Below are positions 199-7,316 of a DNA stretch of 7,316 nt, piece after piece. The notes beneath the pieces were generated by a model. The model was not told the origin of the DNA. It saw only the letters and a list, made by a program, of their open reading frames with translations, and did no database searches. The DNA lies in the IMG/VR virus record IMGVR_UViG_2684622618_000023. One strand, 5' to 3'. Origin of the DNA: a virus. Lineage: Duplodnaviria > Heunggongvirae > Uroviricota > Caudoviricetes. A program made the position numbers and the translations under genes. How positions within the stretch are numbered: position 1 is the stretch's first letter; every line of letters begins with the position of its first letter.

Positions 199-645
199 TC
201 AAAAAGCAATAACTTTTTNNNNNNNNNNNNNNNNNNNNNNNNNNNNNNNNNNNNNNNNNNNNNNNNNNTAACGCTGACTCAGAACATTGAGCAGCCCGGG
301 ATAACCTGCCAGTACTTCACCAATAACCCTGTCGATTATTAACGCCTCTGAATCGGTACAATGCACCAGCCAGCTTTTTTGCTTGCCGTTGATCATATCC
401 CGCAAAAAAGCCTCAAGTTTAGGTTTGTCCAGACCTGCTTTTTTCATCCTCCGGAGCGCCTCGTTAATTGCCGTTTTTGTCAGCTTTTTAGAGGTCAGCA
501 ACTGGTTGAACATATTTCCCGTCTTACCGCCGCCAATATACGACCAGCGCCCCCACATACGTAGTTTCCCCTGAATCCAGACACTTTCCAGCGTGGTGAG
601 ACGAAGGTGCTCTCCGCTTTTTCCTGTGTTCGTTGGGTAAATCAT
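199..645 (-). CDS. Putative lambdoid late-gene antiterminator (Q-like) protein; 3' end uncertain because the frame runs through the N-run
   Basis: ATG at 645-643 overlaps the TGA stop of the upstream YbcO-like gene (ATGA), with AAAGGA about 10 nt upstream. About 125 codons of clean, protein-like sequence (MIYPTNTGKSGEHLRL...GYPGLLNVLSQR) before the N-run. The Q assignment is mainly positional (last gene before terminator and tRNA, after nin genes). The 40 codons upstream of this ATG in the supplied 199..765 ORF are Arg-rich, lie inside the neighbouring gene and are unlikely to be translated. The stop at 199-201 is only valid if the gap length is exact. Confidence 0.45.
   Translation of the reverse strand: MIYPTNTGKSGEHLRLTTLESVWIQGKLRMWGRWSYIGGGKTGNMFNQLLTSKKLTKTAINEALRRMKKAGLDKPKLEAFLRDMINGKQKSWLVHCTDSEALIIDRVIGEVLAGYPGLLNVLSQRXXXXXXXXXXXXXXXXXXKVIAF
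219..268. other. Run of 50 N (assembly gap or masked bases) inside the 3' part of the Q-like gene
   Basis: Literal n characters at 219-268. Confidence 0.97.
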
Positions 646-932
646 AAATAACCGTCCTTTCTCCAGATCTCTTGTGTGCGAAAAACACCTTCTGCATGCA
701 TCAGGCGCAATTCTTCTTTGGTGTAATCGCTGGTTTTTACTCTCCCGTCGATTAAATCGTGGCATGAGTTACAGGCAATCGCTGCCTGCATATCGTGTGG
801 CTTTATCGCTGTTCCGCACGTTCCCGCCAGCCTGTAATGCGCCAGCACAGAGGTTTCGGGATTGTGATTGCAGTAGCCAGGGATTCTGATCTGGCATATC
901 TGGCCTTTAGCCGCTTTACGTAAATTCACCAT
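642..932 (-). CDS. ybcO: YbcO-like (DUF1364-type) Cys-rich phage nin-region protein, putative nuclease
   Basis: 96-aa ORF MVNLRKAAKGQICQIRIPGYCNHNPETSVLAHYRLAGTCGT...ACNSCHD..., which matches in length and pattern my recollection of E. coli DLP12 YbcO (RKAARG..C.VRIPG.CN.NPETSVLAH.RL.G.CGT..KP.D..A.IAC..CHD). Start ATG 932-930 shares one base with the TAA of the upstream gene. Confidence 0.7.
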   Translation of the reverse strand: MVNLRKAAKGQICQIRIPGYCNHNPETSVLAHYRLAGTCGTAIKPHDMQAAIACNSCHDLIDGRVKTSDYTKEELRLMHAEGVFRTQEIWRKDGYL

Positions 933-1531
933 TACGCAAACTCCAGTAGTTGTGCGGCCACATTTTCAACTTCCTCCTGAGAGGAGAATTTACGGAACAG
1001 AATCCAGTTCCACAGCACATTCAGTACAGATTTATAAACCTGCTGAAACTCGACTTCGTCCATATTCGCAAAAGCGATGGATTTTGCCCGACGCCCACGG
1101 CTACCGTCCGGATAAATATGCTCGGTGTAAAATCCGGCCTGAATGGTTACCCACTCGCGGAAAGCCTCAAACGACTTTAGCAACGCCGTATCCCGGGTTC
1201 TACGAGTCGCAACGGTGTTAAGGTATTGCTCTGCGGCATCACTCAGGGCTGGCGTGTGTTCCCGACCAACTGATTCGCACAGGTAATCAACGAAACCAGA
1301 CAGCAGTTCTCGTTCGCGAGGCGTGATCGCCCCACCGACCGGAGTCCAGTAATCGAATCCCAGTTGCAGGAGTTTGAAAAAACGCTTGTGGAATGCGTAG
1401 TTACGCACACGCTTAAAATCTGCGTGTATCCACTCACCTATTTTGATTTGATGCAGAAAATCGCAACTCTCCGGCGTCGCCGGGAGAAGTAAACCAGAAG
1501 AAGTTTGTTTGACCAGTTGTATATGCGCCAT
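932..1531 (-). CDS. Lambdoid nin-region protein, resembles DUF1367-type phage proteins
   Basis: 199-aa ORF starting at ATG 1531-1529 with GAGAG about 9 nt upstream; stop TAA 934-932. Sequence (MAHIQLVKQTSSGLLLPATPES...EFQQVYKSVLNVLWNWILFRKFSSQEEVENVAAQLLEFA) matches what I recall of DUF1367 proteins found next to ybcO-like genes in lambdoid prophages; family name from memory, unverified. Confidence 0.65.
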   Translation of the reverse strand: MAHIQLVKQTSSGLLLPATPESCDFLHQIKIGEWIHADFKRVRNYAFHKRFFKLLQLGFDYWTPVGGAITPRERELLSGFVDYLCESVGREHTPALSDAAEQYLNTVATRRTRDTALLKSFEAFREWVTIQAGFYTEHIYPDGSRGRRAKSIAFANMDEVEFQQVYKSVLNVLWNWILFRKFSSQEEVENVAAQLLEFA

Positions 1532-1950
1532 TTCTCAATCTCTCGATGGCGCAGTGCAGCAGATGCCAGTTGTTCAAGCTAGCACGCAAATTGTAAACCA
1601 GAATGCCAGGAAAAAACAAAACCCGCCGAAGCTGGTTGTGTGCGGTTGCGTTGAAGTCTCCTAGCCAAAGAGTAGCGGTGACCACTCCCCGCCGATAATC
1701 TTAGTTGTTTAATTTCGTAAGCTAACTAGGCTAAAAGCTCTCTGTTGTCTGCCTGTTGTACAATTAACAAAATGAACAACGAACTAGATATACCAACGCC
1801 AGAATGGTGCAACAAATCCCAAACAACACAGCAATGCAACAATAACATATGTTATTTTCCTCTCACGGGATTCAGTCCTGAATTCTCATAAAGCTAATCT
1901 TTTTTTAAAAACATACTGTTAGATCACATGCACTTTCTTTCTTAACATCG

Positions 1951-1978
1951 TTGACTTCGCATGCGAAGCGTTTAAAAT
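1951..1978 (+). promoter_or_regulatory. Candidate sigma70 promoter for the GHKL operon
   Basis: TTGACT at 1951-1956, 16-nt spacer, TAAAAT at 1973-1978; predicted start near 1985, about 45 nt upstream of ATG 2031; AT-rich upstream region. Pattern match only. Confidence 0.4.
1955..1968. promoter_or_regulatory. Perfect 14-bp palindrome CTTCGCATGCGAAG overlapping the -35/spacer of the candidate GHKL promoter (possible operator)
   Basis: cttcgcatgcgaag at 1955-1968 is identical to its reverse complement. The palindrome itself is certain; a regulatory role is inferred from its position. Confidence 0.5.
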
Positions 1979-2030
1979 CAACAATTTGCACTTAAGGTAT
2001 TTATTTTCCCAAACACATAGAGAGTAAATT

Positions 2031-3422
2031 ATGACTGAGAACACGACTCCAACAGCAGACTTTAGTCCTAGTAAAAGATTTTTTGTAAGTATGCTAACTC
2101 GAGATATCGACTTAAACGATGCCATACTTGATCTGCTTGATAACTGCGTCGATGGGGCTTTACGTACAATAAAAGACACAAAAAAAACTTCAAAACCATA
2201 TGAAGGATTTTATGCGAAACTTACGATTAATAAAGATGTCTTTATTATAGAAGACAATTGCGGAGGTATCCCTAAAAGCTTCCGAGAATATGCTTTTAAA
2301 ATGGGACGACCCCATCAAAAAGAAGAAGAAAATGAAGGCACCGTTGGCGTCTATGGTATTGGTATGAAAAGAGCCATTTTTAAAATGGGTAGAGATTGCT
2401 CAATACAATCGAATAATCCCGATGGCGCATTCACTGTAGATATAACACCTGATTGGATCGATGGTGATGGTTGGAAAATACCGATGCACGAGAGTGACTA
2501 TGATAACAAAAATCCAACAGGCACAACTATAGAGATAAAAAAACTCCATTCTAATGTGGCACAAAAATTTAATGAGAGCACATATCTTACTGATCTCTTT
2601 TTACAGATAAAACACTCATTGTCATTTATTATTCAAAAAGGATTTAAAATAGAATTAAATGGAGTTGTTGTTGAACATAATCCGATTAACATCATAACTG
2701 ATCATTCTAAAATAGAACCATACATATATAAAGCTAAAATAGACGATGTTGATATCGATTTAGTTGTTGGCTTCTATAAAAATTTAGAAGATGACAATGA
2801 TGATGTTTTAGAAAAAAGGAGTTCTGATGATGCTGGATGGACTGTCATTTGCAATGACCGCGTTGTTCTATATTGTGATAAGACACATCTCACAGGTTGG
2901 GGCTTTGCTAATGTACCAAGGTTTCATACCCAATTTATAGCAATTTCTGGGGTTGTTCGCTTTACCAGTAAAAACCCAGAAAAATTACCAATAACAACAA
3001 CGAAACGAGGTGTCGATCTTAGTTCTACATTGTACAATGATGTACGAAATAAAATGATTGAAGGGATGATGCATTTTATTCGATTCACCAATCAGTGGAA
3101 AGGTGAGCATCTTGAAGAAGGGAAAAAATTACTTAAGTCAGCTCAGTCACATGAAGCTCAATCTTTATTTGAAATTACCCCACAATCAACTCCAGAAGAT
3201 AAAAAAAATAACTGGTCCAACCCTAATAGAAACAAAAATGAGTGGCGATATACACCTAAGCTGCCTACCCCAGTAAAAAAAAGCTCTACTGTACGAATAA
3301 TCTTCACCAGAGAGAAAGAAGATGTTAAAATTTTATCTAAATATTTCTTTGGACATGAAGATGCTAGCGCTTCTGATGTGGGGATGCAATGCTTTGATAC
3401 GGTGATTGAAGAGGTGAAGTGA
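2031..3422 (+). CDS. GHKL-superfamily (Bergerat-fold, MORC/MutL-like HATPase_c) ATPase, 463 aa
   Basis: ATG 2031 with AGAGAG upstream. N-terminal motifs in the canonical order: N-box DLLDNCVDGA (nt about 2130-2159), G1 box IEDNCGG (D at 2253), G2 box GVYGIGMKRA (MORC-like GxYGxGxK), motif IV PTGTTIEI. The remaining ~260 aa are of unassigned function (possibly an S5-like transducer); no HNH, PD-(D/E)xK or PLD motif was evident by eye. Confidence 0.85.
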   Translation: MTENTTPTADFSPSKRFFVSMLTRDIDLNDAILDLLDNCVDGALRTIKDTKKTSKPYEGFYAKLTINKDVFIIEDNCGGIPKSFREYAFKMGRPHQKEEENEGTVGVYGIGMKRAIFKMGRDCSIQSNNPDGAFTVDITPDWIDGDGWKIPMHESDYDNKNPTGTTIEIKKLHSNVAQKFNESTYLTDLFLQIKHSLSFIIQKGFKIELNGVVVEHNPINIITDHSKIEPYIYKAKIDDVDIDLVVGFYKNLEDDNDDVLEKRSSDDAGWTVICNDRVVLYCDKTHLTGWGFANVPRFHTQFIAISGVVRFTSKNPEKLPITTTKRGVDLSSTLYNDVRNKMIEGMMHFIRFTNQWKGEHLEEGKKLLKSAQSHEAQSLFEITPQSTPEDKKNNWSNPNRNKNEWRYTPKLPTPVKKSSTVRIIFTREKEDVKILSKYFFGHEDASASDVGMQCFDTVIEEVK

Positions 3423-4411
3423 TGTCTGGACAATACATTCCCTATCACTTAAGGCATAATAAGTCTATTGATAGAGAGATTTTTCTCGAAAGCCTAAACC
3501 TCTTAAGCAAAAGACTAAATATTCAAGAATATACATATATAGGTTTTGGTGGTCCGATGCTTGAAGATTTTAGAATCATGCATAATCGTATCGCTCTTTC
3601 TGATATGATTTCTCTCGAAGAACAAGAGTCTACTCACATCAGACAAAAATATAATTTGCCTTATAATTGTATTGATTGTAAGCTAATATCAGCTCATGAC
3701 TTTATTCTTGATTATAGTTTTTCTAAACCATCAATAACATGGTTAGACTATGCCTCCCCGAAAAAAATACAAACGGATCTAGATGATATACACTTACTAA
3801 GTACTAAAGTAAGCTCTTTTGATATTTTGAAGGTCACCTTCCCCATAAATCCTAGTTCTTATTACCAACGTAGAGTTGGAGAAAGTTTAGATATTTTTAA
3901 AGAAGCTTTTATTAATTCATTAAAATCATTGCTTGGGAAAAAGTATCTTGATTTTAATCTTCAGATATCAAATGCAGATCTTTCAGATCGTAAGATTAAA
4001 GCTCTTTTAATACGAATTATTACAAACGCTTTTAGATCAGCAATAGAACGTGGTCTTTCAGGACGTAAGGATAAGATTCAGTATTACCCATTATCCTTAA
4101 ATCAATATAATGATGGCAGTCATACCATGTTGACAATATCAGGTTTTTTCTCCTCAGAACAAGAATATATAGAGTTATCTAAGGCATGCGACCTTTCTAA
4201 CTGGCAATTTTATTCAACAAATTGGGAAGACGTGCAAGAAATAGCAATACCAACACTAACAATTAAAGAAAAGATAAATTTAGATAGTAAACTGCCTGAT
4301 AAAGAAGCATATCAGGCAGCCGCTGAAGAGTTCTCTTTAAACGAAAATGAACGGGATAACTATTATAAATACTATAGGTTATACCCTAACTTCCAAAGAA
4401 TTATGGTTTAA
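3422..4411 (+). CDS. Hypothetical protein (~329 aa), co-operonic partner of the GHKL ATPase; no recognisable family
   Basis: ATG 3422-3424 shares its A with the TGA stop (3420-3422) of the GHKL gene; GAGG at 3411-3414 gives 7-nt spacing. The supplied ORF begins 3 nt earlier at GTG 3419, which has poorer spacing. Ends TAA 4409-4411. Same AT-rich composition and codon usage as the GHKL gene. No catalytic motif could be assigned with confidence; weak D-x-K candidates such as IDCK are not persuasive. Confidence 0.8.
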   Translation: MSGQYIPYHLRHNKSIDREIFLESLNLLSKRLNIQEYTYIGFGGPMLEDFRIMHNRIALSDMISLEEQESTHIRQKYNLPYNCIDCKLISAHDFILDYSFSKPSITWLDYASPKKIQTDLDDIHLLSTKVSSFDILKVTFPINPSSYYQRRVGESLDIFKEAFINSLKSLLGKKYLDFNLQISNADLSDRKIKALLIRIITNAFRSAIERGLSGRKDKIQYYPLSLNQYNDGSHTMLTISGFFSSEQEYIELSKACDLSNWQFYSTNWEDVQEIAIPTLTIKEKINLDSKLPDKEAYQAAAEEFSLNENERDNYYKYYRLYPNFQRIMV

Positions 4412-5530
4412 ATATTCGGGCTGTACTCTTTTATTTAATAAATTGTACAGCCCCTTTAATATATATTCAGCAACTATTGGTGACACGCTATTTCCTATTT
4501 GTCTGAAACTATGCCATTTAGTTACATGAAAGCGAAACCAATCAGGGAAGCCTTGTAATCTAGCAGCTTCTCTTGGTGTAATCACTCTTGGATGATAAGG
4601 GTGGATCGGCCTGACGGCTTGAAAGCTTCCTTTATCTCTAGCGGTTCCCGCCCTTAAAGTCGGGCAAAAACCATTTGGATCTAATCTTGTAGATCTTGAA
4701 ATTTTATCAGTTTCCCCAAAAGATAAGGAAGCATAACGCTCTTGGACGATTTTGCTATGTAATGTTCCGGTACATCCAGATATGATATTATTTTTTAACT
4801 TAGCGATCGATTCTGTATCACCAACATTCCGAGGGATCTGCCCCCATAATTTTTCATAAAATCCCCCTTTTCGATCTTTTTTAATTGTTCGCCAACTCTC
4901 AGAGTCTGATTGCCAATTGGCATCGATAATATCTGGTAATCCATACAAAGCATCTTTTACAGTAACCGGATCAATCATTTTAGGCATAAATACTTCATCT
5001 GAAATATCAAGCTTCAATGATTTTTTTACACCGATAAAAAAATATCTAGTTCGAATAGTTGGAGCACCATAATCAGATGCTTTTACCTTGATGGGATCAA
5101 GAATATCATAATCACCGCTAACCAAATTAAATGCTTTATTTCTAATGCCAGAATATTTCTCTTGCATAATACCTGGAACATTTTCTGCCAAAAAGAATAA
5201 TGGCTGTAATTCTGATACTAAACGGTAGAAATGCATGTAAAGCTGATTCCTGCTATCATCAGGATTCCCCTTGCCTATTGAACTAAATCCTTGGCACGGA
5301 GGACCGCCAATAATACCATCTATGGGCATATCGTTTTTAAAAAAACCCTTAATTATTTCTGCATTTAGTAAAGAAACATCTTCTTGGACGTGCAAACTTC
5401 TTGGAAAATTAATTGCGTGAGTATTAATAGCATGTTGATCAATTTCAACTGCCATTTTAACATCAAATCCAGCACGTGCAGCACCAAGACTTAGACCTCC
5501 AACGCCAGAAAACAAATCTATTACATTCAT
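4379..5530 (-). CDS. DNA (cytosine-5)-methyltransferase, Dcm/M.HhaI-type, 383 aa
   Basis: Canonical C5-MTase motifs in order: motif I DLFSGVGG at the N-terminus (AdoMet binding), motif IV GGPPCQGFS (catalytic Cys codon at 5294-5296), motif VI ENVPG, an RTRYF region (motif VIII-like), and C-terminal GNSVSP (motif X). Start ATG 5530-5528; stop TAA 4381-4379. Confidence 0.9.
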   Translation of the reverse strand: MNVIDLFSGVGGLSLGAARAGFDVKMAVEIDQHAINTHAINFPRSLHVQEDVSLLNAEIIKGFFKNDMPIDGIIGGPPCQGFSSIGKGNPDDSRNQLYMHFYRLVSELQPLFFLAENVPGIMQEKYSGIRNKAFNLVSGDYDILDPIKVKASDYGAPTIRTRYFFIGVKKSLKLDISDEVFMPKMIDPVTVKDALYGLPDIIDANWQSDSESWRTIKKDRKGGFYEKLWGQIPRNVGDTESIAKLKNNIISGCTGTLHSKIVQERYASLSFGETDKISRSTRLDPNGFCPTLRAGTARDKGSFQAVRPIHPYHPRVITPREAARLQGFPDWFRFHVTKWHSFRQIGNSVSPIVAEYILKGLYNLLNKRVQPEYLNHNSLEVRV

Positions 5531-5562
5531 ATAGTTGCAACGTCTCTTATTAGTTTCTATGT

Positions 5563-5571
5563 ATTATAACA
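5563..5571 (-). promoter_or_regulatory. Candidate extended -10 promoter (TGtTATAAT) for the methyltransferase gene
   Basis: Minus strand reads TGTTATAAT (plus 5563-5571). It lies about 33 nt upstream of ATG 5530 with TAAGAGA between as a weak ribosome-binding site. No good -35, which is acceptable for an extended -10. Pattern match only. Confidence 0.4.
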
Positions 5572-5792
5572 CAACTGTTCTTGATGTTTTAACCCCATAA
5601 GATAACCTCATAAAGGCTATCCCTTGAAAATACCGGATCGCATAAATTTAATCTTTCAAAACTACTTGTCTATTAATCGAGCAATTTAAGGTTGTTTTAG
5701 TCATGTCGATACCGACATAGTTAACTAAACCCATTTCATCGTCCAACAAATGGGGGTAATACACTTTGATTTATAGTCGGGTGGGTTTTTCT

Positions 5793-5828
5793 CTATCTGC
5801 CTTTGGTGTTCATGCCCAAGGCAGATAG
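5793..5828. repeat. Inverted repeat, 11-bp arms (CTATCTGCCTT / AAGGCAGATAG) around a 14-nt spacer, in the non-coding region upstream of the MTase
   Basis: ctatctgcctt at 5793-5803 and aaggcagatag at 5818-5828 are exact reverse complements. No adjacent U-run on either strand, so not a classical intrinsic terminator. Confidence 0.6.
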
Positions 5829-5961: not shown

Positions 5962-6447
5962 TCATCGTGAAACATCCTCCACGCTTATAAGTCCGCTTCG
6001 CTCCAGGTAGTCCATCACTTTATCCGGCAATTTGCAGCCCGGTTTCGCTTTCTTCAGTTGACTAACCAATTGTTTAACCAGCATTGTCAATTCGCGAACT
6101 TGTTTCCCGGGCTCCCCTTTGCCCTGAAGCAGGGCAGCGCGGCAAGCGTTCCATCCCTCAGCATATGTTTCAGTTACACCATCGAGATGGCATGTAAGCA
6201 AATCCATTTCTTCCGGCACTACGGGCGCTGGAAAAACGGCATAGGGTGGCGTCCATTTTGGCGCTTTATCTCCAGCCGAACGCTGCTACCAGTCATCCGG
6301 TTTGTATTCATAAAAATCACCAACTGGCTCTGCTTCCAGCGATGCCAGCGCAATCCGTGCCAGTTCCATTTGTTCACCACGGGTAAGCCCGTTTTCAACC
6401 GGATTTTTAATGAACAATTCAATACGTTCTTTGGTAATAGTGGTCAT
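5962..6447 (-). pseudogene. Phage hypothetical gene with a single in-frame TAG (6288-6286); an intact reading would be about 161 aa. Alternatively two adjacent small ORFs
   Basis: Strong start: AAGGAG 6 nt upstream of ATG 6447-6445, giving MTTITKERIELFIKNPVENGLTRGEQMELARIALASLEAEPVGDFYEYKPDDW, then TAG. The same frame continues protein-like (QRSAGDKAPKW...EEMDLLTCHLDG...SGLISVEDVSR) to TGA at 5962. The downstream part has no convincing ribosome-binding site of its own (GTG 6219 or ATG 6207). Confidence 0.4.
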
Positions 6448-6457
6448 GTGTTACTCC

Positions 6458-6721
6458 TTAACCCGCAGTGCTTTCAACTGATGAGGGGAACAAAATCTTT
6501 TCATCAAACCCTGCATTCATATCATGAACAGCAACACACCAATCCATCGACGAACGATTATCAAGAGCCTCCATGATTTCATCCATGCGGCGTAGGTCAT
6601 ACAGGTAAATGCTTTTATCGCCAATGGTGTAAAAGCCAATTTTTTTCGGTGATGGACAGCGATCAAGAACTTCCTGTAATTCGTTCAACCATGCCCGTTC
6701 TTTTTTTGTCAAAGTTGCCAT
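6458..6721 (-). CDS. Hypothetical small phage protein, 87 aa
   Basis: ATG 6721-6719 preceded by AAGGA; 2 nt downstream of the previous gene's TGA. Its TAA stop (6460-6458) sits inside the ribosome-binding site of the next gene. Protein-like composition (MATLTKKERAWLNELQEVLDRCPSPKK...). Confidence 0.65.
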   Translation of the reverse strand: MATLTKKERAWLNELQEVLDRCPSPKKIGFYTIGDKSIYLYDLRRMDEIMEALDNRSSMDWCVAVHDMNAGFDEKILFPSSVESTAG

Positions 6722-6722
6722 A

Positions 6723-6941
6723 TCAGTTTTCCTTATACGGATTAATTTTATTGTGCAGTGCGCTGAATGATTCCCATGTCACATCGGTATATAGCTCAAT
6801 AACTGGTTCAAATGTCCTTCCAATTATCCAGACCAGTAATAGCGGGGATATCGGTATCATCAACACTATAAACAGAATGAAAAACAGAAACTCTGTTGTT
6901 CTGCTCTTTCGTGGGTAATTTTTTTCTAAATAATGTTTCAT
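6723..6941 (-). CDS. Small predicted single-pass membrane protein, 72 aa
   Basis: ATG 6941-6939; a hydrophobic stretch FLFFILFIVLMIPISPLLLVWIIG consistent with one transmembrane helix; tight packing with the downstream gene. Confidence 0.6.
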   Translation of the reverse strand: MKHYLEKNYPRKSRTTEFLFFILFIVLMIPISPLLLVWIIGRTFEPVIELYTDVTWESFSALHNKINPYKEN

Positions 6942-6947
6942 TTCTTA

Positions 6948-6963
6948 CCGCCCTTTCGGGCGG
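6948..6963 (-). promoter_or_regulatory. Stable GC hairpin with a GAAA tetraloop between an AGGAGG element and the start codon of the 72-aa gene
   Basis: Minus strand reads CAGGAGG-CCGCCC-GAAA-GGGCGG-TAAGAA-ATG: perfect 6-bp GC stem with a GNRA-type loop ending 6 nt before the ATG. Confidence 0.5.
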
Positions 6964-7068
6964 CCTCCTGATGTTCTGAGGGTGCAGGAATCCCTCCGGT
7001 TAAGGATTTAATAAAAATCGTTTCTGATTTAAATCTTCAGTATTTAGTTGTTAGTTGGTTTATCGCCT

Positions 7069-7316
7069 TTATGCTTCAGCCTTATTTCGCAACCAGACAC
7101 AAACCGGGCCATCTTCCGTATCATGAATGGAACCAATAAACCAGCCATCGCCCTCTGGTCGTTCCGGTTCCCATGCAGAAATATCAGCATCACACGCATC
7201 AAGGTCAGCACATCCTTCATCTCTGAAGCAGAGGACGTATTGAAGATTATTTTCCTCCATCCAGGCGTTAAACTCTTCCGTTGAAATATATTCCCGACCA
7301 TCACAGAATTTTTCAT
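7069..7316 (-). CDS. 3' part of a gene for a strongly acidic protein; 5' end lies beyond the right window edge
   Basis: The frame is open from the window edge to TAA at 7071-7069 (...EKFCDGREYISTEEFNAWMEENNLQYVLCFRDEGCADLDACDADISAWEPERPEGDGWFIGSIHDTEDGPVCVWLRNKAEA). About 25% Asp+Glu in the last 63 residues. The internal ATG at 7260 lacks a well-spaced ribosome-binding site, so the gene probably starts outside the window. Confidence 0.55.
   Translation of the reverse strand, partial: EKFCDGREYISTEEFNAWMEENNLQYVLCFRDEGCADLDACDADISAWEPERPEGDGWFIGSIHDTEDGPVCVWLRNKAEA

Follow-up and report, generated by a model that had tools for sequence, protein, structure and literature searches.

What does a MORC-like ATPase of the GHKL family do in a viral genome when no nuclease is attached to it? 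The question is raised by a gene in IMG/VR virus record IMGVR_UViG_2684622618_000023, a stretch of 7,316 nucleotides from a virus of the Caudoviricetes, which as a whole we call the window. The original prediction, made from the letters alone, placed a GHKL ATPase at positions 2031-3422 and proposed that it is an ATP-driven sensor or clamp working with a separate effector rather than a self-contained restriction enzyme. We found that this gene is part of a self-contained three-gene cassette, together with a downstream partner of methyltransferase fold and a C5 DNA cytosine methyltransferase (Dcm). With about even confidence, we favour a methylation-keyed immunity or addiction cassette that follows restriction-modification (R-M) logic with no recognisable nuclease, in which Dcm would mark self, the ATPase would be the sensor or clamp, and the partner would be the effector. 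The three genes are:

2031..3422, plus strand: MORC-like GHKL ATPase, 463 amino acids (aa), ATG start and TGA stop
3422..4411, plus strand: partner with a class I S-adenosylmethionine (SAM)-methyltransferase fold, 329 aa, Pfam PF20553 (Methyltransf_35), "putative O-methyltransferase"
4379..5530, minus strand: C5 DNA cytosine methyltransferase (Dcm), 383 aa, convergent with the partner gene, whose 3' end it overlaps by 33 bp

The ATPase, its partner and the cytosine methyltransferase

The open reading frame (ORF) of the ATPase carries the motifs first read from it, namely D-L-L-D-N-C-V-D-G-A (residues 34-43), DNCGG (75-79), GVYGIGMK (106-113) and TGTT (163-166). Its membership of the GHKL ATPases was borne out by a match to Pfam HATPase_c_3 (E = 2.9e-9, above the gathering cut-off), and the protein has the Bergerat ATP-binding fold of this class. 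Across 42 homologues of 45-85% identity, residues D34, D37, N38, D41, G42, D75-N-C-G-G79, G106, Y108-G-I-G-M-K-R114 and G164 never vary; therefore, the motifs are not a matter of chance.

We compared these motifs with those of known GHKL proteins. The G1, G2 and GT motifs are all present. The G1 box D75-N-C-G-G79 (window 2253-2267) has an invariant Cys at the site of the first Gly in DxGxG; its aligned counterparts are DNGNG in MORC3 and DNGCG in MutL, and its DNC is common to sister GHKL families (DNCGG, DNCSG, DNCLG). The G2 box had been called MORC-like, and in a profile search of PDB sequences G106-x-Y-G-I-G-M-K-R indeed aligned with VGLYGNGFK of MORC3/MORC4; the MORC3/4 matches of the ATPase profile were weak (E ~0.04) and lay in the G1-G2 region. 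G164-T165 of the GT motif (motif IV) are conserved. The single ATPase sequence matched no PDB chain, and an hhalign comparison of the family profile with E. coli MutL (approximate sequence) aligned the G1 box only, with a non-significant score (probability <1%, E = 0.063).

The N-box departs from the classical ExxxNxxD: N38 and D41 are present, and Asp D34 stands at N-4 as a conservative replacement. The predicted substitution of Asp for the N-box Glu recurred as D-L-[LI]-D-N in 119 of the 120 best database homologues. In the profile search of PDB sequences, N38 was aligned with the N-box Asn of a histidine kinase, and in the structure model of the ATPase it lies on helix 28-46. From the i/i+4 (ExxxN) spacing on one helix, and not from a superposition, we infer that D34 occupies the N-4 site of the usual catalytic Glu. 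Judged by the sequences of sister GHKL families (FDLIDNSIDAA), the Asp-for-Glu N-box is a trait of a wider clade that includes them and not of this ATPase alone. The GyrB E42D mutant illustrates that Asp can still support reduced hydrolysis. The invariant N-box Asp may tune the ATPase toward a slow, long-lived ATP-bound clamp.

The structure model consists of a Bergerat domain (~1-200), an S5 transducer (~200-350) and a helical C-terminal tail (350-463), and nothing more. An S5-like transducer thus follows the Bergerat fold, a possibility raised with the original prediction, and the protein has the MORC layout of a GHKL domain and then an S5 transducer supplying a conserved basic residue; K325 is found in LPxTTTKRG of the S5 domain. 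The closest structural matches of the model were MORC3, SMCHD1 and MORC2. S5 residues 269-279 (G-W-T-V-I-C-N-D-R-V-V) are nearly invariant and fit the MORC signature GhXhhpXXRhl by pattern, and may be the positional equivalent of the MORC motif. An S5-only profile matched no PDB sequence, and Morc6_S5 gave no Pfam hit at E <= 0.1.

In the C-terminal ~260 aa, Pfam, NCBIfam, PDB sequence, fold and S5-profile searches detected neither a nuclease family nor a nuclease fold, in agreement with the first reading of this region. The short helical tail matched neither HEPN nor Ymh, unlike the paraMORC-HEPN proteins, which are defined by a C-terminal HEPN domain with an Rx4-6H motif. We considered the S5 motifs CNDR and HxQF as a hidden nuclease site and rejected this idea, as they are common to HEPN-bearing sister GHKLs. 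The ATPase family is large, with more than 5,430 clusters at 90% identity (E <= 0.001) and a full-length identity of ~45% across phyla. Its annotation is "ATP-binding protein" only at NCBI and "unknown function" in PHROGs (phrog_20521).

The partner gene begins where the ATPase gene ends. The TGA of the ATPase and the ATG of the partner share one base (TGATG), with GAGGTG upstream and an alternative GTG start at 3419; by this layout, the partner gene is translationally coupled to the ATPase gene. The partner matches PF20553 over its full length (E = 2e-89, profile positions 1-308 of 309), and its AlphaFold 2 model has a pLDDT (predicted local distance difference test) of 89. Across 77 diverse sequences, GFGGP (G44, G45) after strand 1, E67 after strand 2 and D110 after strand 4 are invariant or nearly so, as are Y9, R12, K15, R19, Y230, D232 and E284. 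The partner thus seems to keep both SAM binding and the catalytic-position acid D110. Among solved structures, most of its nearest neighbours are RNA base methyltransferases (RsmD-like, Trm1, RlmI/O, RlmJ), with COMT lower in the list. NCBI annotates the protein as "O-methyltransferase" only; neither the fold nor these structural neighbours point to O-methylation in particular.

Against the PDB, the partner sequence had no match and its family profile gave chance-level matches only, and no nuclease family or fold was detected in it by sequence and fold searches. Its family comprises 2,123 clusters at 50% identity. Among the best 150 of these 2,123 representatives there were no fusions, all being standalone proteins of ~330 aa. 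The PHROGs entry, phrog_19983, is again of unknown function.

The third gene encodes a C5 methyltransferase (Pfam DNA_methylase, E = 2.6e-61; PADLOC Type II methyltransferase). Over 367 residues it is 100% identical to a structural-genomics entry, PDB 3G7U ("cytosine-specific methyltransferase"), for which our literature search found no publication mentioning it. The part of the gene that overlaps the partner gene encodes the non-conserved C-terminal tail (residues 361-383).

Linkage, co-evolution and variants of the cassette

We scanned one genome per species with our own ORF calling, phmmer and clustering, and obtained 83 non-redundant loci. They span more than 15 bacterial phyla and one archaeon in a patchy distribution. 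The partner lies directly downstream of the ATPase in 79 of the 83 loci, with overlaps of mostly 1 or 4 bases, typically 4. A C5 methyltransferase of the same clade as the window's Dcm adjoins in 75. Most often the genes run Dcm, ATPase, partner on a single strand; the convergent layout of the window also occurs in Enterobacter, Stenotrophomonas, Azoarcus and Firmicutes. In IMG/VR, the ATPase-partner pair was found in 67 of 73 viral loci, all but one of these 67 with Dcm; no partner was found there apart from an ATPase, and a search with the partner profile returned the same contigs as the ATPase.

Clustering of the flanking ORFs for a fourth conserved gene yielded only Vsr (Pfam-confirmed, 31 of 83 loci) and a cluster of HhH-GPD glycosylases adjoining the cassette in 8 (representative L028 12327-13175). 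The presumed role of this enzyme is that of a T:G mismatch glycosylase standing in for Vsr. The presence of either enzyme near the cassette points to an active 5-methylcytosine (5mC) methylase. We found no recurrent neighbour family, the 125 immediate flanking proteins falling into 179 Pfam families of which none occurred in more than four loci.

In a mirror-tree analysis of 64 complete trios, ATPase and partner distances were strongly correlated (r = 0.92), whereas each of them against Dcm gave only 0.42 and 0.40. Given the ATPase, the partial correlation of partner and Dcm was 0.02; we therefore dropped the idea that the partner is a specificity subunit matched to Dcm. In 50 of the 64 trios Dcm belongs to a single clade, and the target-recognition regions of its members align gap-free. 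Taken together, the ATPase and the partner are an obligate co-evolving pair and probably a complex, while Dcm is the usual but exchangeable third component. The cassette is horizontally mobile, as seen in a low-GC prophage insert, carriage by an inovirus, embedding in DISARM and patchy spread. The inovirus is Pseudomonas PfAC20 (PP058144.1; L090 268-3711), where ATPase, partner and cytosine methyltransferase form a trio at the left end. Further on, this filamentous Pf phage has a second, short ORF labelled "DNA cytosine methyltransferase".

Several loci differ from this arrangement in an informative way. Sister GHKLs of ~580 aa form two-gene modules with Dcm (L158-L163, L008), and they share with the ATPase the LTRD strap, the Asp N-box D-L-[LI]-D-N, the DNC G1 box and the S5 motifs GW.V.CN[DE]R, FH.[QE][FY] and LP.T.K. 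The 546-aa sister GHKL of Sideroxyarcus (L085) ends in a HEPN-type Hypoth_Ymh domain (Pfam, E = 7e-34), with which the extra C-terminal region of the ~580-aa sisters aligns. A single Dcm lies between the sister GHKL and the ATPase-partner pair both in Sideroxyarcus (L085 7039-12825) and in Serratia (L008 7995-13674), the latter with a sister of ~600 aa. An HNH_2 gene was seen ~670 bp upstream in the Serratia locus.

In four syntenic cyanobacterial loci, ATPase and Dcm occur with no partner. Two of them have a 270-aa ORF after Dcm (L050 12908-13726, L077 6922-7728) with an EIDE...VQAKGG pattern and no Pfam match. By eye this pattern is PD-(D/E)xK-like, and the ORF may encode a conventional restriction enzyme that takes the partner's place. 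In the Microvirga terrae plasmid NZ_CP102847.1 (L091 6001-8415), the pair is part of a class 1 DISARM operon whose genes run drmD, MmeI-like drmMI (an N6-adenine methylase), ATPase, O-methyltransferase, drmA and DUF1998, with no C5 methylase in view.

Function of the cassette and rival explanations

Across these variants, the constant elements are a MORC-like GHKL+S5 ATPase and a DNA methylase, joined by one variable third function at or after the ATPase C-terminus, which is a HEPN domain, possibly a restriction endonuclease, or the methyltransferase-fold protein. Because the third function is swapped in sister systems, this displacement argues for the partner as effector and for the ATPase as an ATP-driven sensor or switch. 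The proposal of a sensor or clamp with a separate effector, and not a self-contained restriction enzyme, is thus supported by the GHKL+S5-only layout, the coupled partner, their correlation of 0.92 and the HEPN-fused sisters. The folds, motifs, strict gene linkage, co-evolution and mobility, and the lack of any other conserved gene, are what the sequences show; complex formation, sensing of methylation, the effector role of the partner and its target are inferred.

We propose the following sequence of events for such a cassette. Dcm would mark resident DNA as self, and Vsr or the glycosylase would repair 5mC deamination. ATP binding would dimerise the ATPase, the sensor or switch, into a clamp on DNA, and with Asp at the catalytic Glu position, hydrolysis would probably be slow and the ATP-bound state long-lived. 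The partner, as a SAM-binding methyltransferase-fold protein, would be the effector under ATPase control. Once unmarked DNA or another infection cue is detected, the complex would block the invader or the infected cell, possibly through methyl transfer or another SAM-dependent reaction on nucleic acid, the likely targets being RNA of the translation apparatus or foreign DNA. The specific version in which the ATPase reads the 5mC mark and switches on a methyltransferase that kills or blocks by disabling translation (rRNA or tRNA) or by poisoning DNA is one we advance only tentatively and regard as rather unlikely. The HEPN analogy and the RNA-methyltransferase structural neighbours point weakly to an RNA target and to abortive infection; methylation that damages unmarked DNA is an equal possibility.

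Several observations weigh against the favoured cassette reading. Only Dcm matched PADLOC models (generic Type II methyltransferase, DruM, DrmMII); ATPase and partner matched no family in PADLOC-DB v2.0.0, and NCBIfam MzaB scored E = 0.037, well short of its cut-off. In the immediate surroundings, housekeeping genes predominate and not defence islands. Dcm co-evolves weakly with the pair (r ~0.4), and eight cyanobacterial loci carry the pair with no adjacent Dcm; together with the DISARM-embedded pair, these loci leave a strict dependence on 5mC unsupported. A nuclease site that escapes recognition may also be present. Our literature search found no paper on PF20553, on the cassette or on the ATPase-partner pairing, and we know of no precedent for a methyltransferase as an immune effector.

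One rival explanation is a conventional though unusual restriction enzyme, in which ATPase and partner form an ATP-dependent endonuclease with an unrecognised site that cuts DNA lacking the Dcm mark. Dcm, Vsr and two more genes are the classical layout of a 5mC Type II R-M system, the cassette sits at random chromosomal sites as R-M systems do, a nuclease is normally part of MORC/paraMORC operons (PMC2292703), and the PD-(D/E)xK-like ORF takes the place after Dcm in two partner-less cyanobacterial loci. We nevertheless regard it as unlikely: sequence and fold searches picked up no nuclease in either protein, the conserved S5 motifs are shared with HEPN-effector sister GHKLs and so are clade features rather than a nuclease site, and the SAM-binding motifs kept by the partner would be superfluous for a pure nuclease. 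Silencing with no cutting is a different answer to the missing nuclease. Here the partner would be a base-flipping methylation reader, and the ATPase would clamp and compact unmethylated DNA, blocking replication or transcription like eukaryotic MORCs. MORC3, SMCHD1 and MORC2 as nearest structural relatives, the lack of a nuclease in the cassette and the fit by pattern of S5 G269-W-T-V-I-C-N-D-R-V-V to GhXhhpXXRhl (Iyer et al. 2008) speak for it. Methylation-linked systems such as BREX, too, act with no known cleavage, which counts on the same side. Yet the sister GHKLs need a fused HEPN effector, so that the ATPase alone is probably not the effector; the partner has no hypervariable target-recognition region co-varying with Dcm (the partial correlation being close to zero); and the invariant D110 at a catalytic position suggests chemistry and not reading alone. 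Silencing therefore seems to us distinctly improbable.

Two further explanations give the pair a subordinate role. As a guard similar to PrrC or RloC, it would monitor a DNA methyltransferase or a methylation-based defence (Dcm, DISARM), and inhibition by a phage or depletion of SAM would abort the infection. Such a role was proposed for paraMORC-Ymh (HEPN) fusions in R-M neighbourhoods (Anantharaman et al. 2013, PMC3710099); the position of the pair between drmMI and drmA within a DISARM operon agrees with it, and a SAM-binding fold could sense SAM depletion. We consider a guard very unlikely, given that most loci have a lone Dcm and no restriction enzyme, hence little to guard, and that the pair can stand alone. 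Finally, the cassette may have nothing to do with immunity and serve 5mC metabolism, for example as a MutL-like helper of Vsr-type T:G repair or as a second DNA modification step for the mobile element. E. coli MutL, itself a GHKL protein, stimulates Vsr. Vsr or the HhH-GPD glycosylase accompanies the cassette in up to 39 of the 83 loci (31 with Vsr and the cluster of 8, which may overlap), and the mostly housekeeping neighbours suit such a function. Most loci, the window included, nonetheless lack Vsr, the patchy mobile distribution and phage carriage fit a selfish or defence cassette better, and the sister systems bear toxin-type HEPN domains; an accessory function is the least probable of these explanations.

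Genomic setting and relation to known systems

We then placed the cassette in its genomic context. In E. coli O157:H7 and O111, the window corresponds to the nin/Q region of a Rac-like lambdoid prophage. Positions 1700-5800 occur with 100% identity in 172 of 5,426 complete E. coli genomes (3%), and every copy is chromosomal and single. The low-GC insert that holds the cassette contains exactly three genes, ATPase, partner and dcm, and the following further features were noted around them:

1750..5750, no strand assigned: low-GC insert (boundaries approximate), ~30-37% GC compared with ~50% GC around it in the composition profile
1951..1978, plus strand: sigma-70-like promoter candidate TTGACT-16-TAAAAT, 53 nt upstream of the ATPase start, 10 of 12 consensus matches
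4418..4453, plus strand: stable hairpin (inverted repeat I15), 6 nt past the partner stop and inside the 3' coding end of dcm
5563..5592, minus strand: sigma-70-like promoter candidate TTAAAA-18-TATAAT with extended -10 TG, upstream of dcm, from a consensus scan

Sigma-70-like sites in the window were not enriched relative to shuffles, so both promoters are candidates only. The RNA fold of the hairpin has a free energy of -17.2 kcal/mol (z = -3.6 against shuffles), and the U-tract downstream of it is weak. This hairpin is a possible candidate for a terminator of the ATPase-partner operon, or for a site of convergent-transcription control.

According to Pfam, the flanks of the insert in the window are phage genes of the nin/Q region, namely DUF1367, DUF1364/YbcO and DUF1133 (Q-like). 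In the prophage annotation, lysis and terminase genes lie beyond the DUF1133 side, and replication and Rac-type genes on the other. A search of the flanks for direct or inverted repeats marking the insert boundaries returned short AT-rich chance matches only. Window positions 642-1531 (minus strand) and 5962-7316 hold ordinary lambdoid nin genes (a YbcO putative nuclease and DUF1367) and small hypothetical phage ORFs on the minus strand. ATPase and partner run opposite to the surrounding phage genes, and dcm runs in their direction. A run of 50 N (masked or unknown bases) at 219-268 lies within the DUF1133 (Q-like) gene (199-765, minus strand) and appears as X in ORF translations.

As established by Iyer, Abhiman & Aravind (2008, PMC2292703), prokaryotic MORC/paraMORC proteins are GHKL+S5 ATPases encoded in R-M-type operons alongside DCM, Vsr, helicases and nucleases. 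The cassette resembles them in its GHKL+S5 architecture, its links to cytosine methylases and Vsr, its sporadic lateral spread and its best structural match to eukaryotic MORCs. Of this operon neighbourhood it shows Dcm (75 of 83 loci) and Vsr (31 of 83), while no helicase or nuclease recurs. It differs in having no helicase, restriction endonuclease, HNH, TIR or HKD partner; its sole conserved partner is a SAM-methyltransferase-fold protein, which we did not find mentioned in PMC2292703. In the ATPase, Asp takes the place of the N-box Glu and DNCGG that of DNGxG, and no match to one of paraMORC1-5 could be assigned. With the paraMORC-HEPN proteins (Hypoth_Ymh, PF09509; PMC3710099) it has in common the motifs of the same GHKL clade and the same adjacent, sometimes shared, Dcm. 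Those proteins carry a fused C-terminal HEPN domain, a predicted RNase, whereas here the methyltransferase-fold protein is separate.

Type II R-M systems with a C5 methyltransferase and Vsr are likewise compact mobile cassettes with tightly linked genes and prophage carriage. In place of a recognisable endonuclease, the present cassette has the ATPase and a second methyltransferase-fold protein, and no nuclease family or fold was found in the ATPase, the partner or a recurrent neighbour. BREX and DISARM share with it the logic of a methyltransferase and an ATPase with no evident nuclease, and the pair is embedded in the Microvirga DISARM; unlike in these systems, no BREX or DISARM signature protein belongs to the cassette. 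The eukaryotic MORC3, MORC2 and SMCHD1 differ from the ATPase, which lies in a bacterial operon, has no CW, coiled-coil or hinge, has Asp for Glu and shows 15% identity to them. Two papers were set aside as descriptions of the cassette or its ATPase, the V. cholerae WASA paper, which concerns a different GHKL (paraMORC3-Shedu), and the HEF_HK/Response_reg_2 paper, which concerns another GHKL+Dcm neighbourhood. The general theme of MORC/paraMORC proteins in R-M operons is known, but the methyltransferase-fold effector and the nuclease-free trio appear to be undescribed.

The cassette is widespread: it reaches across more than 15 phyla and is present in 3% of complete E. coli genomes, prophages of O157:H7 and O111 among its carriers, yet it is generically annotated and lies outside the PADLOC catalogue. 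It offers a compact three-gene model for the coupling of a GHKL/MORC ATPase to DNA methylation and for methylation-keyed action with no nuclease, in a genetically tractable host and with a crystal structure of Dcm at hand (3G7U). If a nuclease is hidden in the pair, the cassette would represent a new family of ATP-dependent restriction enzymes. If the effector is truly a methyltransferase, it would bring a new effector chemistry into prokaryotic immunity, and if the methyl-transfer reading is true, it would be a bacterial precedent for the eukaryotic partnership of MORC and DNA methylation.

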